Below, piece after piece: positions 4,778-13,205 of a stretch of DNA of 13,205 nt. The stretch spans positions 1-13,205 of the forward strand of contig JBHLLU010000085.1 in assembly GCA_048938895.1 (NCBI GenBank). Reading direction: 5' to 3'. The position numbers and the translations under genes were made by a program. The stretch's first letter is position 1, and each line of letters starts with the position of its first letter. Origin of the DNA: Promethearchaeota archaeon. GTDB taxonomy: Archaea > Asgardarchaeota > Lokiarchaeia > Sigyniarchaeales > SOKP01. Under the pieces are notes generated by a model. It had not been told where the DNA came from. It was given only the letters and a program-made list of their open reading frames with translations, and searched no databases.

Positions 4778-4823
4778 AATTATAAAATAATTTCAGCTTT
4801 ACTTAAAAAAAATTAAATTATTT

Positions 4824-4843
4824 GAAAGGTTAAAAATTTTTAA
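4824..4843 (+). promoter_or_regulatory. Putative internal promoter (BRE/TATA-like) overlapping a 14-bp palindrome
   Basis: GAAAGG followed by TTAAAAATTTTTAA (perfect palindrome, 4830-4843). The TATA-like part begins 30 nt upstream of ATG 4860, the spacing expected for a leaderless archaeal transcript. Confidence 0.4.
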
Positions 4844-4859
4844 ATAAATATGTGATAAT

Positions 4860-5615
4860 ATGGAAAACAATTCAAATCCAAGTAAGTTAAAGTTTTTAAA
4901 CGGACCTGGCACTGGTTTAACCGTAATGGGATTTGCATACATTCTTTGGTGGTTTGCAGGTCCTTGGGCATGGGAATCAATTGCAATGGATCCTAGATGG
5001 GCTCATAATTGGGCTTTTGCGATAATAATTTTTAATGTAGGTTTGGCTTGGTACCATAAAAGTCCTCTTTCAAGGTTGATAGCAATGATTCAATCGTTTA
5101 TGCTGCCTATAACAGCAAGTGGTTCATTTAATACTACTATCTGTACGCTAATAACTTTAATTATTTTCCTCTTTTGGTTCATAATAATATTAGTTGAAAA
5201 AAGAAAGAATGTCAATTTTCTTCAAGAAAAATTAACTAAGAGAGGAAAATTGTGGTTAAATATGCACACACTAATTATAGCTTGGATATTAATAGCACAC
5301 ATGGGATTAGTATTCTTTATAGTTCGATTTCCACTTGAACTTCCCCTGTACCAAATTTCAAATCAAGCGGGATTTTTATCTAATTTGCCACCCGAGGGAT
5401 TAGAATTCGCAACCTGGACATATGACATTGGATTATTTGTATTTCTAATTGTAGTTATATGGGAACAATATAGAATAGGTTATAACGTGAAAAATAAACC
5501 ATGGCCTAGGTATAGCTTTTATGTTGCGCTTTTAGTGATGGGATTATCTTTAATTGCTTTATTGATTCAAGATTTAACAATAGGATTAGATTGGGTTTCT
5601 TCGATATATGGATAA
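4860..5615 (+). CDS. Uncharacterised polytopic membrane protein (about 6-7 TM helices, Trp-rich)
   Basis: 251 aa with about seven hydrophobic segments. His in or next to helices (WAHNW, WYHK, NMHTLIIAWILIAHM). No family recognised. 15 nt gap to the radical SAM gene. Confidence 0.85.
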   Translation: MENNSNPSKLKFLNGPGTGLTVMGFAYILWWFAGPWAWESIAMDPRWAHNWAFAIIIFNVGLAWYHKSPLSRLIAMIQSFMLPITASGSFNTTICTLITLIIFLFWFIIILVEKRKNVNFLQEKLTKRGKLWLNMHTLIIAWILIAHMGLVFFIVRFPLELPLYQISNQAGFLSNLPPEGLEFATWTYDIGLFVFLIVVIWEQYRIGYNVKNKPWPRYSFYVALLVMGLSLIALLIQDLTIGLDWVSSIYG

Positions 5616-5630
5616 TAATTATTTTAGAGT

Positions 5631-6725
5631 ATGTGGGTGAATAAACTGAAAAAGGAAGATTTACCTATGGTTCATGCGGGGATGGCATCAGAGCTTGAAT
5701 TACAAAAATCATATTTCTCTGAAGGAAAAGTGTTTATCCTTCAGATTGAGTCTACATTGAAATGCGAACAAGTATGCAACTATTGTTATGCTGATAGTAA
5801 GCCTGATAGCTTCCATGGGATGAATTCCTCAATAATAAAGATGTTGCTTGATTCTGCTTCAAAATTAGAGGTAAAAATGATTGACTGGTTGGGCGGAGAT
5901 CCATTAGCTCGAGAAGATTGGTATGAATTATGTACTTATGCCAAAAATTTAGGATTGGTTAACAATATCTGGACCAGTGGGATTCCATTAGCCAATCCTG
6001 ATATCGCAAAGAAAGTGGTAGAAATAACCAATGGGGGATTTGTTTCTATTCATTTGGATACAATAAATCCAAATTTATATGACATCCTCCATGGAAGAAA
6101 TAACAAACTATTAACTCATAAGAATATTGAATTAATACTTCAAGGTATTAAACAGGTTATTAAAGAAGGAAAAAATCCTGGATCTATTGTCAATTGTATC
6201 ACCTTAACTACTCCATTGGCCGACGGGGATGCTAAACACATGATTTCTTACATGCAGGAAAAATTTGGGATTAAAACCTGCTTAACTTTATTTAATCCTG
6301 TTATTCATAGAAACTCAAATAAATCCTGGGAACCTAACTTTAGACAAATTAAAGAAAATTTTACCTATCGTGATAAAATCAATTATCCTAATGATCCTTC
6401 TTGTGGCTCTATGGATGTATCGAAATTCTATTGTGGAACTGTTATTTGTGTAAAAGCTGATGGTTGGGTTACCCCTTGCTCGGTAATCCGAACCGAAGAA
6501 TTTGGTAATGTAAATAAAGAATCTCTTGAAAATATCATAGATAGAAATAAAAACCGGTTATTACATCTTGATTTCAGAGATACTTCAAAATTGCCAGGTA
6601 ACTGTAAAAATTGCACAAATAATATAACTTGTTTTGGATGCAGGAGTAGTGCTTATTATTACAATGGAGATATTATGGCAGCAGATCCAAAATGTTGTAA
6701 TTTTACTCCAAACTTTGAGGTATAG
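5631..6725 (+). CDS. Radical SAM enzyme with C-terminal SPASM domain (PqqE/AhbC-D/NirJ-like architecture)
   Basis: CxxxCxxC motif CEQVCNYC (5763-5786); GGE-like WLGGDP; SPASM cysteines CGSMDVSKFYCGTVICVKADGWVTPC and CKNCTNNITCFGCRSSAYYYNGDIMAADPKCC. The true start may be slightly downstream (GTG 5637, ATG 5667). Confidence 0.93.
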   Translation: MWVNKLKKEDLPMVHAGMASELELQKSYFSEGKVFILQIESTLKCEQVCNYCYADSKPDSFHGMNSSIIKMLLDSASKLEVKMIDWLGGDPLAREDWYELCTYAKNLGLVNNIWTSGIPLANPDIAKKVVEITNGGFVSIHLDTINPNLYDILHGRNNKLLTHKNIELILQGIKQVIKEGKNPGSIVNCITLTTPLADGDAKHMISYMQEKFGIKTCLTLFNPVIHRNSNKSWEPNFRQIKENFTYRDKINYPNDPSCGSMDVSKFYCGTVICVKADGWVTPCSVIRTEEFGNVNKESLENIIDRNKNRLLHLDFRDTSKLPGNCKNCTNNITCFGCRSSAYYYNGDIMAADPKCCNFTPNFEV

Positions 6726-6733
6726 AATGTTCT

Positions 6734-7540
6734 ATGACCCATAAAAAGTATGATTTTAGTGTAGATGATGTTAGTAAGGTCTATGCTGGCCCAGGTGGAA
6801 AATTATGGGAGTCATTGATGGGGGAACAAATTCATGTTGGAGGAGAAGAAGACACAAGAATACTTGCTCAAAAAGTCGGATTGAAACCATCTAATAATAA
6901 CAATATTTGGCTTTTAGATATTTGTTCTGCATTAGGAGGTCCCGCTCGTCAATTAGCTAGAGAATTCGGGATAAATGTCGTGGGTTTAGACATAACTCTA
7001 GAGATGATAGAGGAAGCTAGGAACAGAACTCAAGATAAGCCTTATGCCCACAAAATTGAATATCGATTAGGCTCTGGATTAGATATACCTGCTCATGCAA
7101 ATTCGTTTGATGTCATCTGGGGTCAAGATGCTTGGTGTTATATTCGCGATAAAAAACGATTGATTGATGAGATATATAGAGTGTTAAAATTTGGAGGAAT
7201 TCTTGGATTTACAGACTGGATTTGGGGGCCTATTGATCCTTCTGATGCAAAAGCTGATTTTCTTATGGAGTTCATGGTTTTTCCAGATATGGAGACATTA
7301 GATGGGTATCATCAACTAGTAGAAGCCACAGGAATGGTTCTTCTCGAAAAAGAAGACTTAAGTAAGCAGTTTGCAATAAAGATGGATGAATATTTAGATA
7401 TTTTAAATCAGAATAAAGAGAATATCACAAATATATTTGGAGAAGAATTATTTCAAGATGCGGAGAAGGGTATACTCGCATGGAATAAGGCTGCCCATGA
7501 GAAATGGGTAAGTCGAGGTAGATGGATTGCTAAAAAATGA
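6734..7540 (+). CDS. Class I SAM-dependent methyltransferase, sarcosine/dimethylglycine N-methyltransferase-like
   Basis: Motif I variant LLDICSALGGPAR, post-I VVGLDI, motif II ANSFDVIWGQDAW, motif III EIYRVLKFGGILGFTDW, and N-terminal GEQIHVG. Only two Cys. Substrate unknown. Confidence 0.88.
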   Translation: MTHKKYDFSVDDVSKVYAGPGGKLWESLMGEQIHVGGEEDTRILAQKVGLKPSNNNNIWLLDICSALGGPARQLAREFGINVVGLDITLEMIEEARNRTQDKPYAHKIEYRLGSGLDIPAHANSFDVIWGQDAWCYIRDKKRLIDEIYRVLKFGGILGFTDWIWGPIDPSDAKADFLMEFMVFPDMETLDGYHQLVEATGMVLLEKEDLSKQFAIKMDEYLDILNQNKENITNIFGEELFQDAEKGILAWNKAAHEKWVSRGRWIAKK

Positions 7541-7547
7541 TAAAATT

Positions 7548-8339
7548 ATGAAAAGAACGGTTATTATCTTTACTAAAGTCCCTGAAATTGGTTTTGTAAA
7601 AACTCGATTAGCCAAAACTAGCATTTTAAATGATTCTGAGGTAACTACTATAGCTAAAGCTATGTTAATGGATACTATTTTATTATCTAGTGAATCAGAC
7701 ATAGAAATTATCTGTGTAGGTTATTATCCAGAAGAAAAAAAACACTTATTATTAGAACTTATTAATCCACTTAAGTCCGAAATTAACAAGGATATAACAT
7801 TTAATCTGATTCTCCAAGCTGGTAAAAATTTTGATGAAAGGTTTCATTCTGTAGTAAAAAGCGCTATAGAGGACGGATATAGCCATTTGGTTGTCTTAGG
7901 TGCTGACCTCCCATACCTCCATCCAAAATACCTTAATATGACATTCAAATTATTAGAACGTAATAACTCTCAAAATGTAGTCATTGGACCAGCAGGAGGA
8001 GGTGGAATTTATCTAGTAGGTATATCATATAAATTTAACCCTGACTGGATAATAAACTATCAATTATTCCGGGGAGGTGTTGAAATTTCTCAGTTTGTGC
8101 AGCTTGCTGAATTAATGAATTTAAAATTTGACCTTTTACCCCCACTAATAGATATTGATATTGATGAAGATTTAGTTTCACTTCTCTCTTTCATCGAATT
8201 AATGTCAATTTCACATTACAAAAACTATTATCATTTTCCAAAATATACGGCAAAAATAATACAAGATCTAAAATTGTCTATTGAAAGGAAGTCTAAAAAT
8301 ACAAGAATGCGATCGATAAAAAAATATGAACCAGATTAA
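7548..8339 (+). CDS. DUF2064 / TIGR04282-like GT-A-fold transferase (CofC-related; 'transferase 1, rSAM/selenodomain-associated')
   Basis: Family motifs IIFTKVPEIGFVKTRLA, QAGKNFDERF, VLGADLP, VVIGPAGGGGIYLVG and LIDIDIDEDL. ATG 7548 is preferred over TTG 7527 because homologous motifs begin right after it. Confidence 0.85.
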   Translation: MKRTVIIFTKVPEIGFVKTRLAKTSILNDSEVTTIAKAMLMDTILLSSESDIEIICVGYYPEEKKHLLLELINPLKSEINKDITFNLILQAGKNFDERFHSVVKSAIEDGYSHLVVLGADLPYLHPKYLNMTFKLLERNNSQNVVIGPAGGGGIYLVGISYKFNPDWIINYQLFRGGVEISQFVQLAELMNLKFDLLPPLIDIDIDEDLVSLLSFIELMSISHYKNYYHFPKYTAKIIQDLKLSIERKSKNTRMRSIKKYEPD

Positions 8340-9096
8340 AATGCTTGTTTCTGTAATTATTATTACCTTAAATGAAGAAAATAATATTAAAGAAGTTATT
8401 CAATCTGTTAAATCTGCTTCTCAATTGAACGGGACTATTTCCTCGGATATAGAAATAATCCTAAGTGATGGTGGATCTACTGATAAGACTGTTGATATCG
8501 CAAAAAATTTGGTCGATAGAGTAATTAAATCACCTAAGGGAAAATATAACCAGTTAAATTATGGAGCTAAAAGTGCCATTGGCAAGTATCTTCTTTTCTT
8601 ACATGGAGATACTCTTTTACCACCTCATGCTATTCTTAAAATTAAGCATCTTTTAAAAAATCCTGGAATACTAGCTGGTGGTTTCAAAAAATCATGGAAT
8701 TGGGATTCTAAGGATAATACTCTATCCTATATACATGTTTTCAGAAAATTTTGGGAAGGGTTGGGAAATTGGTTAGTTATTCTATTAAAGACTTTCCCAG
8801 GTGATAATGCTTTTTTTATTCGGAAAGAAATATTTGAAGTTTTAAATGGATTCTCACCAATTTTGATCTGTGAAAATCTGGATTTAATTCGACGTTTGAA
8901 AAATTTTATACGAAATAATTGCGGTAAAATACAATATATAAACTCAACTGTTAAAACTTCAGCTAGAAGACTTGAGAAATTTGGGCTTATACAAGTAATT
9001 TCGAGGTGGTTTTTAATCTATTGGCTCTGGAGATTAGGTCTTTCATACCCAAAATTAAATGTGAAGTATAAAAAGCTCCACCATTTGAATTATTAA
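8326..9096 (+). CDS. Family 2 glycosyltransferase, TIGR04283-like ('transferase 2, rSAM/selenodomain-associated')
   Basis: VSVIIITLNEE, IILSDGGSTDKT, QLNYGA, LLFLHGDT, PGDNAFF and VKTSARR match the GT2 subfamily that pairs with DUF2064. Alternative start ATG 8341, 1 nt after the previous stop. Confidence 0.88.
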   Translation: MNQIKMLVSVIIITLNEENNIKEVIQSVKSASQLNGTISSDIEIILSDGGSTDKTVDIAKNLVDRVIKSPKGKYNQLNYGAKSAIGKYLLFLHGDTLLPPHAILKIKHLLKNPGILAGGFKKSWNWDSKDNTLSYIHVFRKFWEGLGNWLVILLKTFPGDNAFFIRKEIFEVLNGFSPILICENLDLIRRLKNFIRNNCGKIQYINSTVKTSARRLEKFGLIQVISRWFLIYWLWRLGLSYPKLNVKYKKLHHLNY

Positions 9097-9180: not shown

Positions 9181-10692
9181 TTGATGCATGAAATTGATAA
9201 AATCCCTAACTCCTCTGTGATGAGAGACAATTTGGAATTTAAATATTTTGTCGAGGGTATTTGGAAAAAATCAGATTCAGGAAAAACCATCATTATTAAA
9301 AATCCCTATAATGATGAGGTAGTAGGATCCGTACAAGCATGCACCATTGAGGAAGTTAATCAAGTAATAAATATTGCGAAAGAAAATCAGGAATGTTGGG
9401 AAGAAAAGGCCCAGAGAGAACGCTCAGATATAATAAAAACGGCTGCTGATTTAATGAGAGAATGGGCTGATTCTTTAGGGTATATCATGATGAAAGAAAT
9501 TGGCAAACCCCTAAAAAGTGCGGTATCAGAAATTATTCGGACAGCCGAATTGTTTGAAGCCACAGCGGAAGCTGGACTACAGCAAGAAGGGGAAGCTATT
9601 TACGGAGATGCTTTTAAAGGTTTTAGTAAAGATAAGATTTCAATGACATACAGGGTTCCTCTGGGAGTGATCCTGTGCATTGGTCCTTTTAATTATCCTT
9701 TTAATCTTACTGGATCGAAAATTGCTCCCGCATTAATGGCAGGAAATACAGTAGTGGTTAAATCTCCTTCTCAGGGAGCAATTACTCCCTTATTTTTAGG
9801 ATTAATCTTAGAAAAAGCAGGAGTGCCTGCAGGTGTTTTTAATATCGTTACCGGGAAGGGTTCTGAAATAGGAGACTATTTAGTACAACACCCTCTAATT
9901 AACATGGTAAGTTTTACTGGATCATCCGTGACTGGCAAACATCTTGCAAGCATTGTAGGAATGAAACCCTTATTATTGGAGCTAGGTGGAAAGGATGCTG
10001 CTATTGTACTAAATGATGCTGATTTAGACATAACTGGAGATGCAATTGTCTCTGGTGCCTTTTCATATAGCGGACAAAGATGTACTGCTGTAAAGAGAGT
10101 TCTTCCAATGCCAGGAATAGCTGATAAATTGATAGAGTTAGTAAAAGAAAAGACAATGAACTTATCCGTAGGAGATCCAGAAAAAAATGCCACTATCGGT
10201 CCTCTCATAAGTTCACAACAATGTGATTATGTTCAAGGATTGATAGATGATGCCTTGGATAAAGGAGCGACTCTGCTATATGGAAATAAAAGGGAGGGTA
10301 ATATCATGTGGCCAACATTGCTAGATAACGTAACAACTGAAATGAGAATAGCTTGGGAAGAACCTTTTGGTCCTGTTTTACCTTTTATAAGAGTTAAAAG
10401 CGCTGAAGAAGCCATAAAAATTTCAAATAAATCAGAATATGGGCTTCAAGGTATGATTTTTACTGAAAACATCGATCTAGCATTTAATATCGCACAAGAG
10501 CTAGAAGTAGGAACTGTGCAGATAAATGGGAAAAGCGAAAGGGGGCCAGATCATTTCCCATTTTTAGGTACTAAATCTTCAGGTTTAGGAACACAAGGAA
10601 TAAAATATTCAATTGAAGCGATGAGCAGACCGAAAGTTGTAGTAATGAACTTATCTGAAAGAGGAAAGCTTGTTAAAAATTGTAAGTATTGA
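9181..10692 (+). CDS. gapN: NADP-dependent non-phosphorylating glyceraldehyde-3-phosphate dehydrogenase (ALDH11 family)
   Basis: ALDH motifs PFNYPFNLTGSKIAPAL, FTGS, LELGGKD (catalytic Glu), GQRCTA (catalytic Cys) and EEPFGP, plus the GAPN-typical INGKSERGPDHFPFLG...QGIKYSIEAM. Start may be ATG 9184. Confidence 0.9.
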   Translation: MMHEIDKIPNSSVMRDNLEFKYFVEGIWKKSDSGKTIIIKNPYNDEVVGSVQACTIEEVNQVINIAKENQECWEEKAQRERSDIIKTAADLMREWADSLGYIMMKEIGKPLKSAVSEIIRTAELFEATAEAGLQQEGEAIYGDAFKGFSKDKISMTYRVPLGVILCIGPFNYPFNLTGSKIAPALMAGNTVVVKSPSQGAITPLFLGLILEKAGVPAGVFNIVTGKGSEIGDYLVQHPLINMVSFTGSSVTGKHLASIVGMKPLLLELGGKDAAIVLNDADLDITGDAIVSGAFSYSGQRCTAVKRVLPMPGIADKLIELVKEKTMNLSVGDPEKNATIGPLISSQQCDYVQGLIDDALDKGATLLYGNKREGNIMWPTLLDNVTTEMRIAWEEPFGPVLPFIRVKSAEEAIKISNKSEYGLQGMIFTENIDLAFNIAQELEVGTVQINGKSERGPDHFPFLGTKSSGLGTQGIKYSIEAMSRPKVVVMNLSERGKLVKNCKY

Positions 10693-10728: not shown

Positions 10729-11517
10729 TTAAATATCTGGATAAGTTTTCCTTTTTACAGGATAAGCAATTTCAGGTCGCTTTGAAATAAATGAATCATT
10801 AAGATCGTTGGCCATATTTCTCGCTATTTCAACAGAGAGTCCCATTGATAAATAATTTTGAGGAAACCAGTAGTTTCCAGTTGGATCAGTAGGACCTATA
10901 ATAATAGAATTCTTTGGACCATTAATAATCATCTCCGCTGGATATGAAATAAAAGATGTACATGCTGCTCCCCATGGAATTTGAATGCTAGAAGCATTAC
11001 CTGGACGAAAATGAGCTAATGAACATAAATTTCGTATTTGTTCTGCCCGACCGAAGCATAAAATAGTTTTAACATCATGATTTTTTATAACTTCAGATTC
11101 ACATTTACTAATTACAGTATACTTACCAAGAGGACTAATCATCCCAATAGAACGTAATTGTTGTTCAGCTAGCTCAGGGTTTGCTATCAAAAACTCAGCA
11201 GCACCTCCCCTAAAATCTGCCGAACCTTTTGATAGAAAGTATTTTAACATTGGAAAAAATGATGAATATCCTAACCATGCTGTTCCCCCCGGACAACAAC
11301 CCTCTAAGGAGTCATTTCCAAGATATGCCGAACTAAGATTTTTATCAACAGATAAGGTAAAAATAGCATTGGCAATACAACGATTAATTTTTTTTATTGG
11401 AGAAGCATTAGCAGGGATTATATCTGAACCAAAAACGCATAATGGGCTTGTTTTTAACTTTCCTGCTTGAGTTAATTTGATTCCAATTTCTTTAATTGTT
11501 AATTTTTCCATAATCAA
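10729..11517 (-). CDS. DUF169-like (COG2043) cysteine-containing protein of unknown function
   Basis: 262 aa. Motifs RCIANAI, GCCPGGTAWLGY, PWGAACTSFISYP and IIGPTDPTG resemble the DUF169 pattern. Start is TTG 11517 or ATG 11511. Confidence 0.75.
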   Translation of the reverse strand: MIMEKLTIKEIGIKLTQAGKLKTSPLCVFGSDIIPANASPIKKINRCIANAIFTLSVDKNLSSAYLGNDSLEGCCPGGTAWLGYSSFFPMLKYFLSKGSADFRGGAAEFLIANPELAEQQLRSIGMISPLGKYTVISKCESEVIKNHDVKTILCFGRAEQIRNLCSLAHFRPGNASSIQIPWGAACTSFISYPAEMIINGPKNSIIIGPTDPTGNYWFPQNYLSMGLSVEIARNMANDLNDSFISKRPEIAYPVKRKTYPDI

Positions 11518-11691: not shown

Positions 11692-13205
11692 TTGAAGAAA
11701 ATTAGTAAAATAATATTATGCTTTACAGTAATATGTCTCGTGTTAGTACCAATTTCAGTTAATTCTTGGCCAAGTTCGAAAAAGAGAATGTATATTCTGG
11801 ATAGAGCTTATAAAAAAGTAACCTTGGTTGAGCCAACTCCTTTGAGAGGGTGCAATGGGCTTATATTTGGACAAGATGGGGCTCTTTATGTATGTCAAAC
11901 AAGTCCAAACACAATTTCCAGAATTACACTTTATAAGAGACATGCTCCTCGTGTAGAAACTTTTGTAGGGCCACACCACGGAGTTATTACTCCCGATGAT
12001 ATTACAGTTGACGATAAGGGTAATTTTTATGCGACTAGTGCGATCGGTGGAGAAGTATACAAAATTAATTCGGAAGGGATGAAGACGGTCATAGCTCATG
12101 GGTTAAATGGTCCGAATGGTATAAGTTTTGATGAAAAATCTGGAAGATTATTTGTGAGTGAATGTTTTTGGGGCAATTACATATGGGAGTTAGATCCTGA
12201 AGGGATAGCCCCCCCTCGATTTGTGAGTGATGCCTTATATGTACCTGAAGGATTTGATATTAGGGATGGAAAGCTCGTTATTCCTGATCTGGGGTCATAT
12301 TGGATTGTTGAAGTGGATATGGATACAGGGTTTATAACGCCTATTGTAACCACAGGATTAATTACACCTGTAGCCTTGAAAATAGGTCCTGATGAATATA
12401 TTTACACTGTTGAGTTAGCTACAGGAGCCGTTAAAAAAATAAGTCCAGATGGCTCTTCAATAGAAGTACTAACATGGTTACTTCCCGGCGTAGATAACCT
12501 TGCTTTTGGACCAGACGGGTACCTCTATGTCAGTAGTTATCATGACTGCACCGTTTGGAAGGTTAATCCTCAAACTGGAGATTATTCCGCACTCTTCCCT
12601 ATGGGAATTAATTCGGTAGCTAGCATAGATGTGAAAGATGATGATATTTATCTCTGTGATTCTATAATGATAAGGATGATTGATGAAGAAGGAAATCTTC
12701 ATAAAACAGGGGCTAATGCGTGGTTGTCACCATCTGGGTATCCATTACCCATGACTATGACAAATGGATTTGGAGATTACCTTATTACTGCTGACTTTAT
12801 AGATGGTGTTGTGGTCTATGTAAATCCAAACGATCCTGAGGATTGGAATTACCTTGCTTATCCCGTTTCTAGCCCTGCGGGAATGGAAGTAGACTTTGCA
12901 AGTATGATGCTATATATTGCGGAATATGGTTTAGGACAAGTTATAGAAGTTAACCTTCTCAATGGAGTTAGAAGAGTACTTGCTGGAGATCTGTCCGGAC
13001 CAATAGATGTAGCAATTAAGAGTGGAACTTTGTATGTAGCCGAAGCACTCGCTGGGCGAATAACAATGATCGATATAGCAAGTGGGGTTAAAGAAATATT
13101 TCTTAATGGCTACGTTGGAAAACCCAAGGGTCTCGCCTGGGATGCTAATGGAAATATGCTCATTGTTGACACAGCAAAAGACGAACTTATAAATGTAAAT
13201 ATGAA
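11692..13205 (+). CDS. Secreted tandem beta-propeller protein, SMP-30/gluconolactonase/NHL-repeat-like (3' partial, runs off right edge)
   Basis: Not in the ORF track. TTG start directly after an in-frame TAA, open for at least 504 codons. Signal-like N-terminus MKKISKIILCFTVICLVLVPISVNS, then at least 11 blades, e.g. GCNGLIFGQDGALYV, TPDDITVDDKGNFYA, GPNGISFDEKSGRLFVSE, GVDNLAFGPDGYLYVSS, GPIDVAIKSGTLYVAE, KPKGLAWDANGNMLIVD. Confidence 0.9.
   Translation, partial: MKKISKIILCFTVICLVLVPISVNSWPSSKKRMYILDRAYKKVTLVEPTPLRGCNGLIFGQDGALYVCQTSPNTISRITLYKRHAPRVETFVGPHHGVITPDDITVDDKGNFYATSAIGGEVYKINSEGMKTVIAHGLNGPNGISFDEKSGRLFVSECFWGNYIWELDPEGIAPPRFVSDALYVPEGFDIRDGKLVIPDLGSYWIVEVDMDTGFITPIVTTGLITPVALKIGPDEYIYTVELATGAVKKISPDGSSIEVLTWLLPGVDNLAFGPDGYLYVSSYHDCTVWKVNPQTGDYSALFPMGINSVASIDVKDDDIYLCDSIMIRMIDEEGNLHKTGANAWLSPSGYPLPMTMTNGFGDYLITADFIDGVVVYVNPNDPEDWNYLAYPVSSPAGMEVDFASMMLYIAEYGLGQVIEVNLLNGVRRVLAGDLSGPIDVAIKSGTLYVAEALAGRITMIDIASGVKEIFLNGYVGKPKGLAWDANGNMLIVDTAKDELINVNM

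Follow-up and report, generated by a model that had tools for sequence, protein, structure and literature searches.

Several described pathways combine an enzyme of the radical S-adenosylmethionine (SAM) class with glycosyl transfer. In mycofactocin biosynthesis, MftC is a radical SAM enzyme with a SPASM domain, MftF a family 2 glycosyltransferase (GT2) and MftM a methyltransferase. The hopanoid side chain, with the adenosyl-hopene transferase HpnH, HpnG and the GT2 enzyme HpnI, offers an analogy in which radical SAM chemistry precedes the transfer of a glycosyl group at the membrane. In the ArsS cassette, the radical SAM enzyme ArsS (TIGR04167) is accompanied by TIGR04282 and TIGR04283, which NCBIfam names 'arsenosugar biosynthesis glycosyltransferases'. 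According to PMC8552651, which cites Xue 2019, arsenosugar synthesis in Synechocystis is started by ArsS together with ArsM. We describe here a five-gene cassette at positions 4860-9096 of contig JBHLLU010000085.1 from a Promethearchaeota archaeon. The window, that is, the whole stretch analyzed, is the entire contig (13.2 kb; G000:C11 in our set) of a genome of 4.65 Mb that is 98.7% complete. The cassette encodes a seven-transmembrane (7-TM) protein, a radical SAM/SPASM enzyme, a methyltransferase (MT), a DUF2064 protein and a GT2 protein (Table 1).

Our preferred reading, drawn from sequence comparisons and given a probability of about 0.55, is that these genes form one operon with a front end, the SPASM enzyme and its MT, which replaces ArsS, and a back end, the DUF2064, GT2 and 7-TM proteins, and that together they serve a generic glycoconjugate pathway. 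The substrate of the front-end pair would be a single small, soluble molecule found in archaea and bacteria alike, which the pair would turn into a methylated building block. The DUF2064 protein, which has a nucleotidyl-/glycosyl-transferase fold, and the GT2 enzyme would activate the methylated unit and, at the membrane, transfer it either in the form of a sugar or to a sugar, and the 7-TM protein would be an acceptor-side enzyme or a flippase. What we infer from the observations below is this sequence of reactions, the acceptor in the membrane and the chemical nature of the product, presumably methylated and sugar-linked.

The radical SAM enzyme and its methyltransferase

The five open reading frames (ORFs) are intact, none having an internal stop, and follow one another on the forward strand with spacings of 15, 8, -14 and -14 nt (negative values being overlaps). 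These coordinates bear out the initial annotation, which had described five co-oriented genes separated by at most 15 nt or overlapping. With an alternative start of the DUF2064 ORF, an ATG at 7548, eight codons in, a 7-nt gap replaces the overlap with the MT gene; the GT2 ORF has an inner Met at 8341.

The radical SAM enzyme exceeds the Pfam cut-offs for both Radical_SAM (PF04055, 38.4 bits, cut-off 29.5) and SPASM (PF13186, 31.7 bits, cut-off 21.5). Its radical SAM motif CX3CX2C (C45/C49/C52) is invariant in family alignment A2, as are the seven cysteines of its SPASM pattern, C268-X9-G278-X4-C283 ... C325-X2-C328-X5-C334-X2-C337 ... C355, which departs at the fourth spacing (X2 vs X3) from what we take to be the usual seven-cysteine arrangement. 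On the ArsS model, whose cut-off is 300, it reaches only 34.4 bits, aligned to no more than model positions 5-80, the N-terminal cluster-binding region. At E<=0.01 its Pfam matches are Radical_SAM, SPASM and Fer4_12 only, and there is none to DUF3641, the Cys-rich C-terminal domain which is presumably a feature of ArsS. No protein of the whole genome passes the ArsS cut-off either (best score 41.3 bits). We therefore reject its identity with ArsS, in line with the initial annotation, to which it looked like a SPASM enzyme of another subfamily. Its best NCBIfam matches, NirJ2 (90 bits), TIGR04053 (87 bits) and AhbD (81 bits), are all far under their cut-offs, and indeed neither the radical SAM enzyme nor the MT, in the window or in Chlorobaculum, passes the cut-off of any NCBIfam model. 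A sequence search returned 563 matches to the radical SAM family.

The MT is a Methyltransf_11 protein (PF08241, 66.8 bits). It had been described as like sarcosine/dimethylglycine N-methyltransferase (SDMT) rather than ArsM, and this description holds: it scores 47.6 bits against the ArsM model NF008823 (cut-off 263), and its closest relatives in the PDB are phosphoethanolamine N-methyltransferases (5wp4, E 4.6e-19) and SDMT (2o57), with E values from 4.6e-19 to 3e-16. Its score of 78.3 bits on the SDMT model NF041675 (cut-off 550) denotes resemblance only. Over 73 archaeal and bacterial sequences, 50 positions of the MT are invariant, Cys64 included, and Cys135 is kept in 72 of the 73. So many invariant positions shared by both domains argue for one common small substrate rather than a lineage-specific lipid.

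The two proteins are an obligate pair. In a tblastn search with the window's proteins, the MT gene adjoined the radical SAM gene at 74 of 79 loci, four of the five misses lying at contig ends, and in one natural fusion (P0207, 637 aa) both enzymes are carried by a single polypeptide, a convenient form for biochemistry. The Asgard metagenome-assembled genome (MAG) DZ3S.51 has two versions of the pair (L072, L089), one of the Heimdall/Hod type with the MT gene preceding the radical SAM gene, the other flanked by two 7-TM genes. One in-frame stop each (TGA, TAG, TAA) is present in three Asgard copies of the SPASM enzyme (G293:C78, G360:C228 and G353:C102), and several Chlorobiaceae ArsM matches contain one in-frame TAA or TGA; such copies could be pseudogenes, sequencing errors or cases of selenocysteine.

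At 11 Asgard loci (within L045-L054, L057, L070 and L071; for example L046 6374-7060), a protein of 228 aa, 4Fe-4S dicluster-like at its C-terminus, is encoded directly upstream of the 7-TM gene, and it may be the electron donor to the radical SAM enzyme. The window is without this gene, and a 51%-identical copy is present on another contig of the same genome (G000:C44:10570-11220).

Since SPASM enzymes usually act on peptides, the question arises as to whether the cassette is a system for a peptide that is made by the ribosome and modified after its translation (RiPP), matured by the radical SAM enzyme and then methylated and glycosylated in the manner of mycofactocin (MftC, MftM, MftF). TIGR04283 is related to MftF, its Chlorobaculum member scoring 47.6 bits on the MftF model, and the Chlorobaculum radical SAM enzyme aligns end to end with the MftC model (71.9 bits). 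However, scores on peptide-maturase models are all far under the cut-offs, that of the window's enzyme on MftC being 46 bits for a cut-off of 265, and the window has neither a free-standing small ORF nor room for one (spacers of 82, 15 and 8 nt). Nor did a recurrent small neighbour or a RiPP recognition element-type gene appear in clusters of neighbouring genes, which took in ORFs of at least 80 aa only and are blind to short peptides. We consider a peptide product very improbable.

The shared transferases and the membrane protein

The DUF2064 protein (PF09837, 56.4 bits, cut-off 25.8; CofC, 31.9 bits) is encoded by the sole such gene of the genome, and its PDB match is 3cgx, a 'putative nucleotide-diphospho-sugar transferase' (E 4.4e-9); a literature search on the family name found no publication. 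The GT2 protein matches Glycos_transf_2 (PF00535, 80.4 bits) and has a hydrophobic or amphipathic C-terminus; its closest PDB relative by sequence is an archaeal dolichol-phosphate mannose (Dol-P-Man) synthase, 5mlz, a weak match (E 8e-5). In other cassettes of the same type, membership of the 'arsenosugar' families is formal: the DUF2064 proteins of G061 and G063 exceed the TIGR04282 cut-off (189.5 and 191.5 bits, respectively, vs 134), and the GT2 protein adjoining the SPASM enzyme in G061 exceeds that of TIGR04283 (184.3 vs 182).

The 7-TM protein matches no Pfam or NCBIfam family at E<=0.01, and 30 members of its family gave only scattered Pfam matches at E<=10. A word-index search returned 158 homologues, every named one being from Asgard archaea, and a profile search of 1.84 billion representatives returned only 33. 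Its AlphaFold2 model has seven long helices (predicted local distance difference test score, pLDDT, of 89) and resembles no known fold closely (best Foldseek match in the PDB, E 0.44; best VIA Z score, 6.6), and the best-scoring match in the ESM Atlas (0.82) is a nameless cluster. Polar residues that are invariant within the helices (DPRWAHN, H136, H147, FPLE and LPPE..E) suggest a catalytic or binding function over that of a passive anchor. A lycopene-cyclase/CruF-type identity, prompted by eye by FPLE and LPPE, was dropped for want of Pfam support.

This protein is no bystander. Two Asgard ArsS cassettes (L134 and L135), with the order ArsS-TIGR04282-7TM-GT2, encode a 7-TM protein 42-45% identical to that of the window, and in a Thorarchaeota locus (L044) the GT2, 7-TM and DUF2064 genes stand alone, next to thiolase and DUF35 genes. 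Presence in ArsS cassettes and in a trio lacking any radical SAM gene places it with the back end, not with the radical SAM enzyme. It is thus a new archaeal family, mostly labelled Asgard, and the third member of the shared back end in archaea. Its distant members P0248 and P0255 carry an N-terminal ferritin-like/rubrerythrin (di-iron) domain, and one Bathyarchaeia locus has a plain copy as well as a longer one of 388 aa (L088 7468-8634).

Distribution of the cassette and of ArsS

A gene-neighbourhood survey had been proposed to see whether the cassette recurs, and it does. The five genes occur in identical order in two of 36 genomes of the same genus (G025 and, split over two contigs, G001), in five named Asgard MAG contigs (L039-L043) and in further Asgard contigs. 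Since this order recurs while the flanking genes vary, the arrangement is not due to chance. The closest named relatives of the window's genes are MAGs labelled Promethearchaeia, Promethearchaeota or Hermodarchaeota, in agreement with the Asgard host suspected from the sequence. A scan of 185,579 species genomes with the family alignment gave 156 radical SAM loci, of which the best 80 were analyzed; a scan with a single protein from the Methanospirillum-labelled locus gave only two. The loci belong to Asgard groups, Halobacteriota/Methanomicrobia, Methanoperedenaceae, Thermoplasmata, Bathyarchaeia and Chlorobiaceae, with a single locus each in Acidobacteriota and Chloroflexia. Besides the MT, tblastn with the window's proteins found DUF2064 at 42, the 7-TM protein at 34 and GT2 at 24 of the 79 loci searched, counts that underestimate divergent DUF2064 and GT2 genes, and clustering of neighbouring ORFs at 80 loci gave 44, 36 and 26, respectively. 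In several archaeal phyla the cassette genes are adjacent, mostly co-oriented and separated by short gaps. The cassettes of Heimdall, Hod and Bathyarchaeia are extended by genes for another GT2, a membrane GT2 and a GT87-like protein, as would suit glycosylation at a membrane, and for a DoxX protein.

A tree of the radical SAM enzymes was built from 65 loci, the window and four outgroups; not included were L112 (in-frame stop), loci that were partial or duplicates, and several of those from Chlorobiaceae. The tree is of unrooted quality: its outgroups are not monophyletic, and we therefore do not rely on the root. Two groups labelled Halobacteriota/Euryarchaeota (L059-L069) nest in the Asgard clade of the window, at 63-67% identity, which suggests recent transfer of the cassette between phyla. 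The loci L060-L069 have a GT2 of 353 aa, upstream in some and downstream in others, and tblastn with the window's 7-TM protein found no such gene in them.

How the pair is distributed relative to ArsS and the transferases was surveyed in three lineages. The first is the order of G061, a Methanospirillum-labelled MAG, with 151 genomes at least 85% complete. There the SPASM enzyme is present in 23 genomes, TIGR04282 above its cut-off in 24 and both in 22 (Fisher p 4e-23), the two genes lying about 0.8-1.8 kb apart; TIGR04282 occurs in 2 of the 128 genomes without the SPASM enzyme, and ArsS in none of the 151. With 22 of 23 SPASM genomes having TIGR04282 and no ArsS in the order, bona fide 'arsenosugar' transferases partner there only with the SPASM enzyme. 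The Asgard sample comprised 201 genomes: the SPASM enzyme occurs in 15, ArsS in eight, and no genome has both. Seven of the eight ArsS genomes have TIGR04282 above the cut-off, adjoining ArsS in the loci compared, and 10 of the 15 SPASM genomes have a divergent DUF2064 (82-101 bits). Among 101 Chlorobiaceae genomes, finally, TIGR04282 is present in 94, ArsS in 59 and the SPASM enzyme in 30, four genomes having both radical SAM enzymes (odds ratio 0.045); 84 of the 94 TIGR04282 genomes have one or the other.

The complementarity of ArsS and the SPASM enzyme suggests that the two front ends have equivalent roles. In the syntenic Chlorobiaceae locus, the gene order is x718, x191, phytoene-desaturase/HpnE-like, [ArsS], TIGR04282, TIGR04283, csmH, x178, bshB1. 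In Chlorobaculum thiosulfatiphilum DSM 249 the ArsS slot of this locus is empty (L123 4382-9469), and the SPASM-rSAM/MT pair is on another contig. This cultured strain, with sister green sulfur bacteria that have ArsS at the syntenic locus, provides an experimental handle. The phytoene-desaturase/HpnE-like gene of Chlorobiaceae (L123, L125-L127) scores 410 bits as phytoene desaturase and 257 as HpnE, both under the cut-offs; together with the thiolase and DUF35 neighbours of the Thorarchaeota trio, it may point to an isoprenoid link. The surveys, along with the Asgard ArsS cassettes that share the 7-TM, DUF2064 and GT2 proteins, strongly back the proposal in the initial annotation that a transferase module is reused with different radical chemistry. 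The module itself had been expected to co-cluster with ArsS and a methyltransferase. The first half of this expectation stands, ArsS lying beside TIGR04282; in the Asgard and Chlorobiaceae ArsS cassettes that we inspected, no MT adjoins ArsS.

Could the operon instead house two unrelated functions, the pair tailoring a cofactor, for example a tetrapyrrole, or making an osmolyte, and the DUF2064, GT2 and 7-TM proteins serving a separate purpose? The closest curated relatives of the radical SAM enzyme, NirJ2 and AhbD, would fit such a role, as would the resemblance of the MT to small-molecule N-methyltransferases, and the pairs of Chlorobiaceae stand by themselves, in surroundings that vary. Yet such independence is difficult to reconcile with an order in which TIGR04282 accompanies 22 of 23 SPASM enzymes and is found in only 2 of 128 genomes lacking them, with adjacency, co-orientation and short gaps in several archaeal phyla, or with the exclusion of ArsS in two lineages. 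We regard it as distinctly unlikely.

A second alternative keeps the product ascribed to the ArsS cassette: the window would encode an anaerobic pathway that leads to arsenosugars or arsenosugar lipids without ArsS, in which the MT methylates As(III), the SPASM enzyme makes the C-As bond and the back end glycosylates. If one enzyme had displaced a non-orthologous one within a single pathway, their distributions would be complementary, as are those of the pair and ArsS; the NCBIfam names of both transferases concur, and two conserved cysteines of the MT are near its SAM site. ArsS and ArsM begin arsenosugar synthesis in Synechocystis, as stated in PMC8552651, and a search of the genome for arsS and arsM, also proposed with the initial annotation, found a bona fide ArsM gene (G000:C137:5364-6320, 335.8 bits vs 263) beside a MarR-type regulator and outside any ars operon; it found no arsS, so that the transferases do not go with a separate arsS locus. 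However, the MT falls far short of ArsM and its closest solved relatives are N-methyltransferases, and a second MT would be redundant where the genome already has ArsM. Pfam and NCBIfam scans of the window found no ars genes, as claimed before, and none are among the annotated neighbour genes. Moreover, ArsM exceeds its cut-off in only 22 of the 59 Chlorobiaceae genomes with ArsS, so that the ArsS cassette itself may lack specificity for arsenic in anaerobes, and the ArsS of green sulfur bacteria may be independent of ArsM or of arsenic. Because the MT is not ArsM-like, ArsM is scarce among ArsS-bearing Chlorobiaceae and the back end is nearly universal there, we rank a generic glycoconjugate pathway above the arsenosugar route, which we hold to be possible though unlikely. 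Since the 'arsenosugar' transferases have a partner other than ArsS in whole lineages, and are near-universal in Chlorobiaceae that mostly lack ArsM, the arsenic-specific name given by NCBI to TIGR04282 and TIGR04283 is probably too narrow.

Several observations weigh against the generic pathway. The 'usual transferase pair' of the initial annotation is right in that TIGR04282 and TIGR04283 are the best matches and align over their full length, but both proteins of the window stay under the curated cut-offs (95.3 bits vs 134 over model positions 1-189/189 for DUF2064, and 163.5 vs 182 over positions 1-221/221 for GT2). Five of the 15 Asgard genomes with the SPASM enzyme have no TIGR04282 match at E<=1e-18. 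In Chlorobiaceae, four genomes have both radical SAM enzymes and 16 have neither, and TIGR04282 is so nearly universal that its co-occurrence with the pair is uninformative. In the same family, 18 of 19 loci gave no match to the window's DUF2064 or GT2 protein near the pair by tblastn, and the annotated contexts are variable (restriction-modification, HipA and major facilitator superfamily genes), so that the coupling of pair and back end rests there on genome-level statistics. The surveyed genomes are related and not independent, and the Fisher values are accordingly overstated. As to chemistry, the nearest curated families, NirJ2 and AhbD, are tetrapyrrole enzymes, which could mean a substrate of another kind. 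The AlphaFold2 model of the radical SAM enzyme (pLDDT 68.5, with low confidence in the SPASM part) does not discriminate, Foldseek matching BlsE, SkfB, MoaA, viperin-like proteins, EpeE, SuiB, Tes and anSME alike, with TM scores of about 0.5.

A bolder form of the generic pathway would make DUF2064-GT2(-7TM) a general membrane glycoconjugate machine with interchangeable radical SAM front ends, the pair producing a C5-sugar or pentitol unit free of arsenic and methylated at N (or S/Se), that is, a nitrogen analogue of arsenosugars. If so, the pathway would be an older one, near-universal in green sulfur bacteria, and ArsS would make arsenosugars as a special case of it or in a side reaction. 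We put this forward as a speculation and consider it unlikely. Candidate products on the same reading are methylated aminopentanetetrol-type or pentose/methyl-phosphatidylethanolamine-type head groups of archaeal lipids, for which we know of no described biosynthetic route. The starting point for aminopentanetetrol (APT) was the likeness of the MT to phospho-base N-methyltransferases; APT head groups are known in Methanomicrobiales, according to PMC6581649 and PMC6423904. An APT lipid as the general product of the pair was nevertheless rejected: the SPASM enzyme is present in only 3 of 14 genomes of the genus of G061 and 23 of 151 of its order, and so sparse an enzyme cannot account in general for a lipid that is found throughout the order.

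Around the cassette (Table 1), the G+C content is about 30-40% throughout the window. The flanking ABC exporter and aldehyde dehydrogenase genes are not kept beside the cassette in other genomes. For this reason the exporters are probably unrelated to it, a role in lipid or glycolipid export being possible. In one other Asgard contig (L050 5453-6949), the aldehyde dehydrogenase gene has a 74%-identical counterpart directly upstream of the cassette; the remaining loci compared gave no match to it.

Table 1. Features of the window, with positions counted from its first nucleotide
Feature	Position	Strand	Remarks
Open-ended ORF, 300 aa	3-902	-	
Two tandem half-transporter ABC exporters, 610 and 606 aa	1123-4777	+	MsbA/lipid-exporter-like, 357-414 bits, under cut-offs; end 82 nt 5' of the cassette
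Candidate archaeal promoter: AT-rich spacer, 82 nt	4778..4859	+	TATA-like run at ~4837-4849, shortly before the ATG; read by eye from the sequence
7-TM membrane protein (MEM), 251 aa, ATG	4860..5615	+	No Pfam/NCBIfam family; AlphaFold2 model with seven long helices
Radical SAM/SPASM enzyme, 364 aa, ATG	5631..6725	+	PF04055, PF13186
Class I SAM methyltransferase (MT), SDMT/phosphoethanolamine-N-MT type, 268 aa, ATG	6734..7540	+	PF08241
DUF2064/CofC-like protein, 270 aa, TTG start	7527..8339	+	PF09837; TIGR04282-like
GT2 glycosyltransferase, 256 aa, ATG	8326..9096	+	PF00535; TIGR04283-like
Aldehyde dehydrogenase, 3' of the cassette	9181-10692	+	Lactaldehyde-dehydrogenase-like, 443 bits vs cut-off 650
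DUF169 protein	10729-11517	-	
NHL/SGL beta-propeller protein	11692-13203	+	Runs off the contig end

Comparison with known systems

As to the hopanoid analogy drawn at the outset, an Asgard ArsS is a weak match to HpnH (33 bits), but none of the window's proteins belongs to an Hpn family. In the mycofactocin set, the same three enzyme classes are brought together, and TIGR04283 is related to MftF. The window differs from it in having no precursor peptide and no MftB, MftD or MftE, and the scores are low: 46 bits for its radical SAM enzyme on MftC (265), and 47.6 for the Chlorobaculum TIGR04283 member on MftF (280).

NirJ, AhbC and AhbD, the tetrapyrrole enzymes of the radical SAM/SPASM type, are the top-scoring curated relatives of the window's enzyme (90, 81 and 68 bits). 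These scores are, however, 5-7 fold under cut-offs of 500-650, heme or siroheme genes are not nearby, and the steady partners of the enzyme are instead an MT and glycosyltransferases. As to polyprenyl-phosphate sugar synthases, the GT2 protein is weakly similar to archaeal Dol-P-Man synthase in its N-terminal GT-A domain, and its gene stands beside membrane protein genes and, in some lineages, a GT87-like gene; yet at only 256 aa it lacks the four-helix transmembrane domain.

The closest parallel remains the ArsS-TIGR04282-TIGR04283 cassette. The DUF2064 and GT2 families of the back end are common to both types, the radical SAM gene stands directly beside DUF2064 in both (in the window, with the MT gene in between), and Asgard ArsS cassettes have the same 7-TM protein. 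They differ in the C-terminus of the radical SAM enzyme, SPASM in the window and with no DUF3641 match in Pfam at E<=0.01, and in the SDMT/phosphoethanolamine-N-MT-like MT that the window type has of its own, none being adjacent in the ArsS cassettes inspected. The genome sets of the two types are largely non-overlapping. Literature searches found no published account of the SPASM-rSAM/MT variant. The uncurated pair, with its 563 matches and 156 species-level loci and no NCBIfam model, ranges over Asgard archaea, methanogens, Thermoplasmata, Bathyarchaeia and green sulfur bacteria. While the ArsS/TIGR04282/TIGR04283 cassette was already known, what the present locus adds to it is a swapped radical SAM front end, a dedicated MT and a 7-TM partner family.

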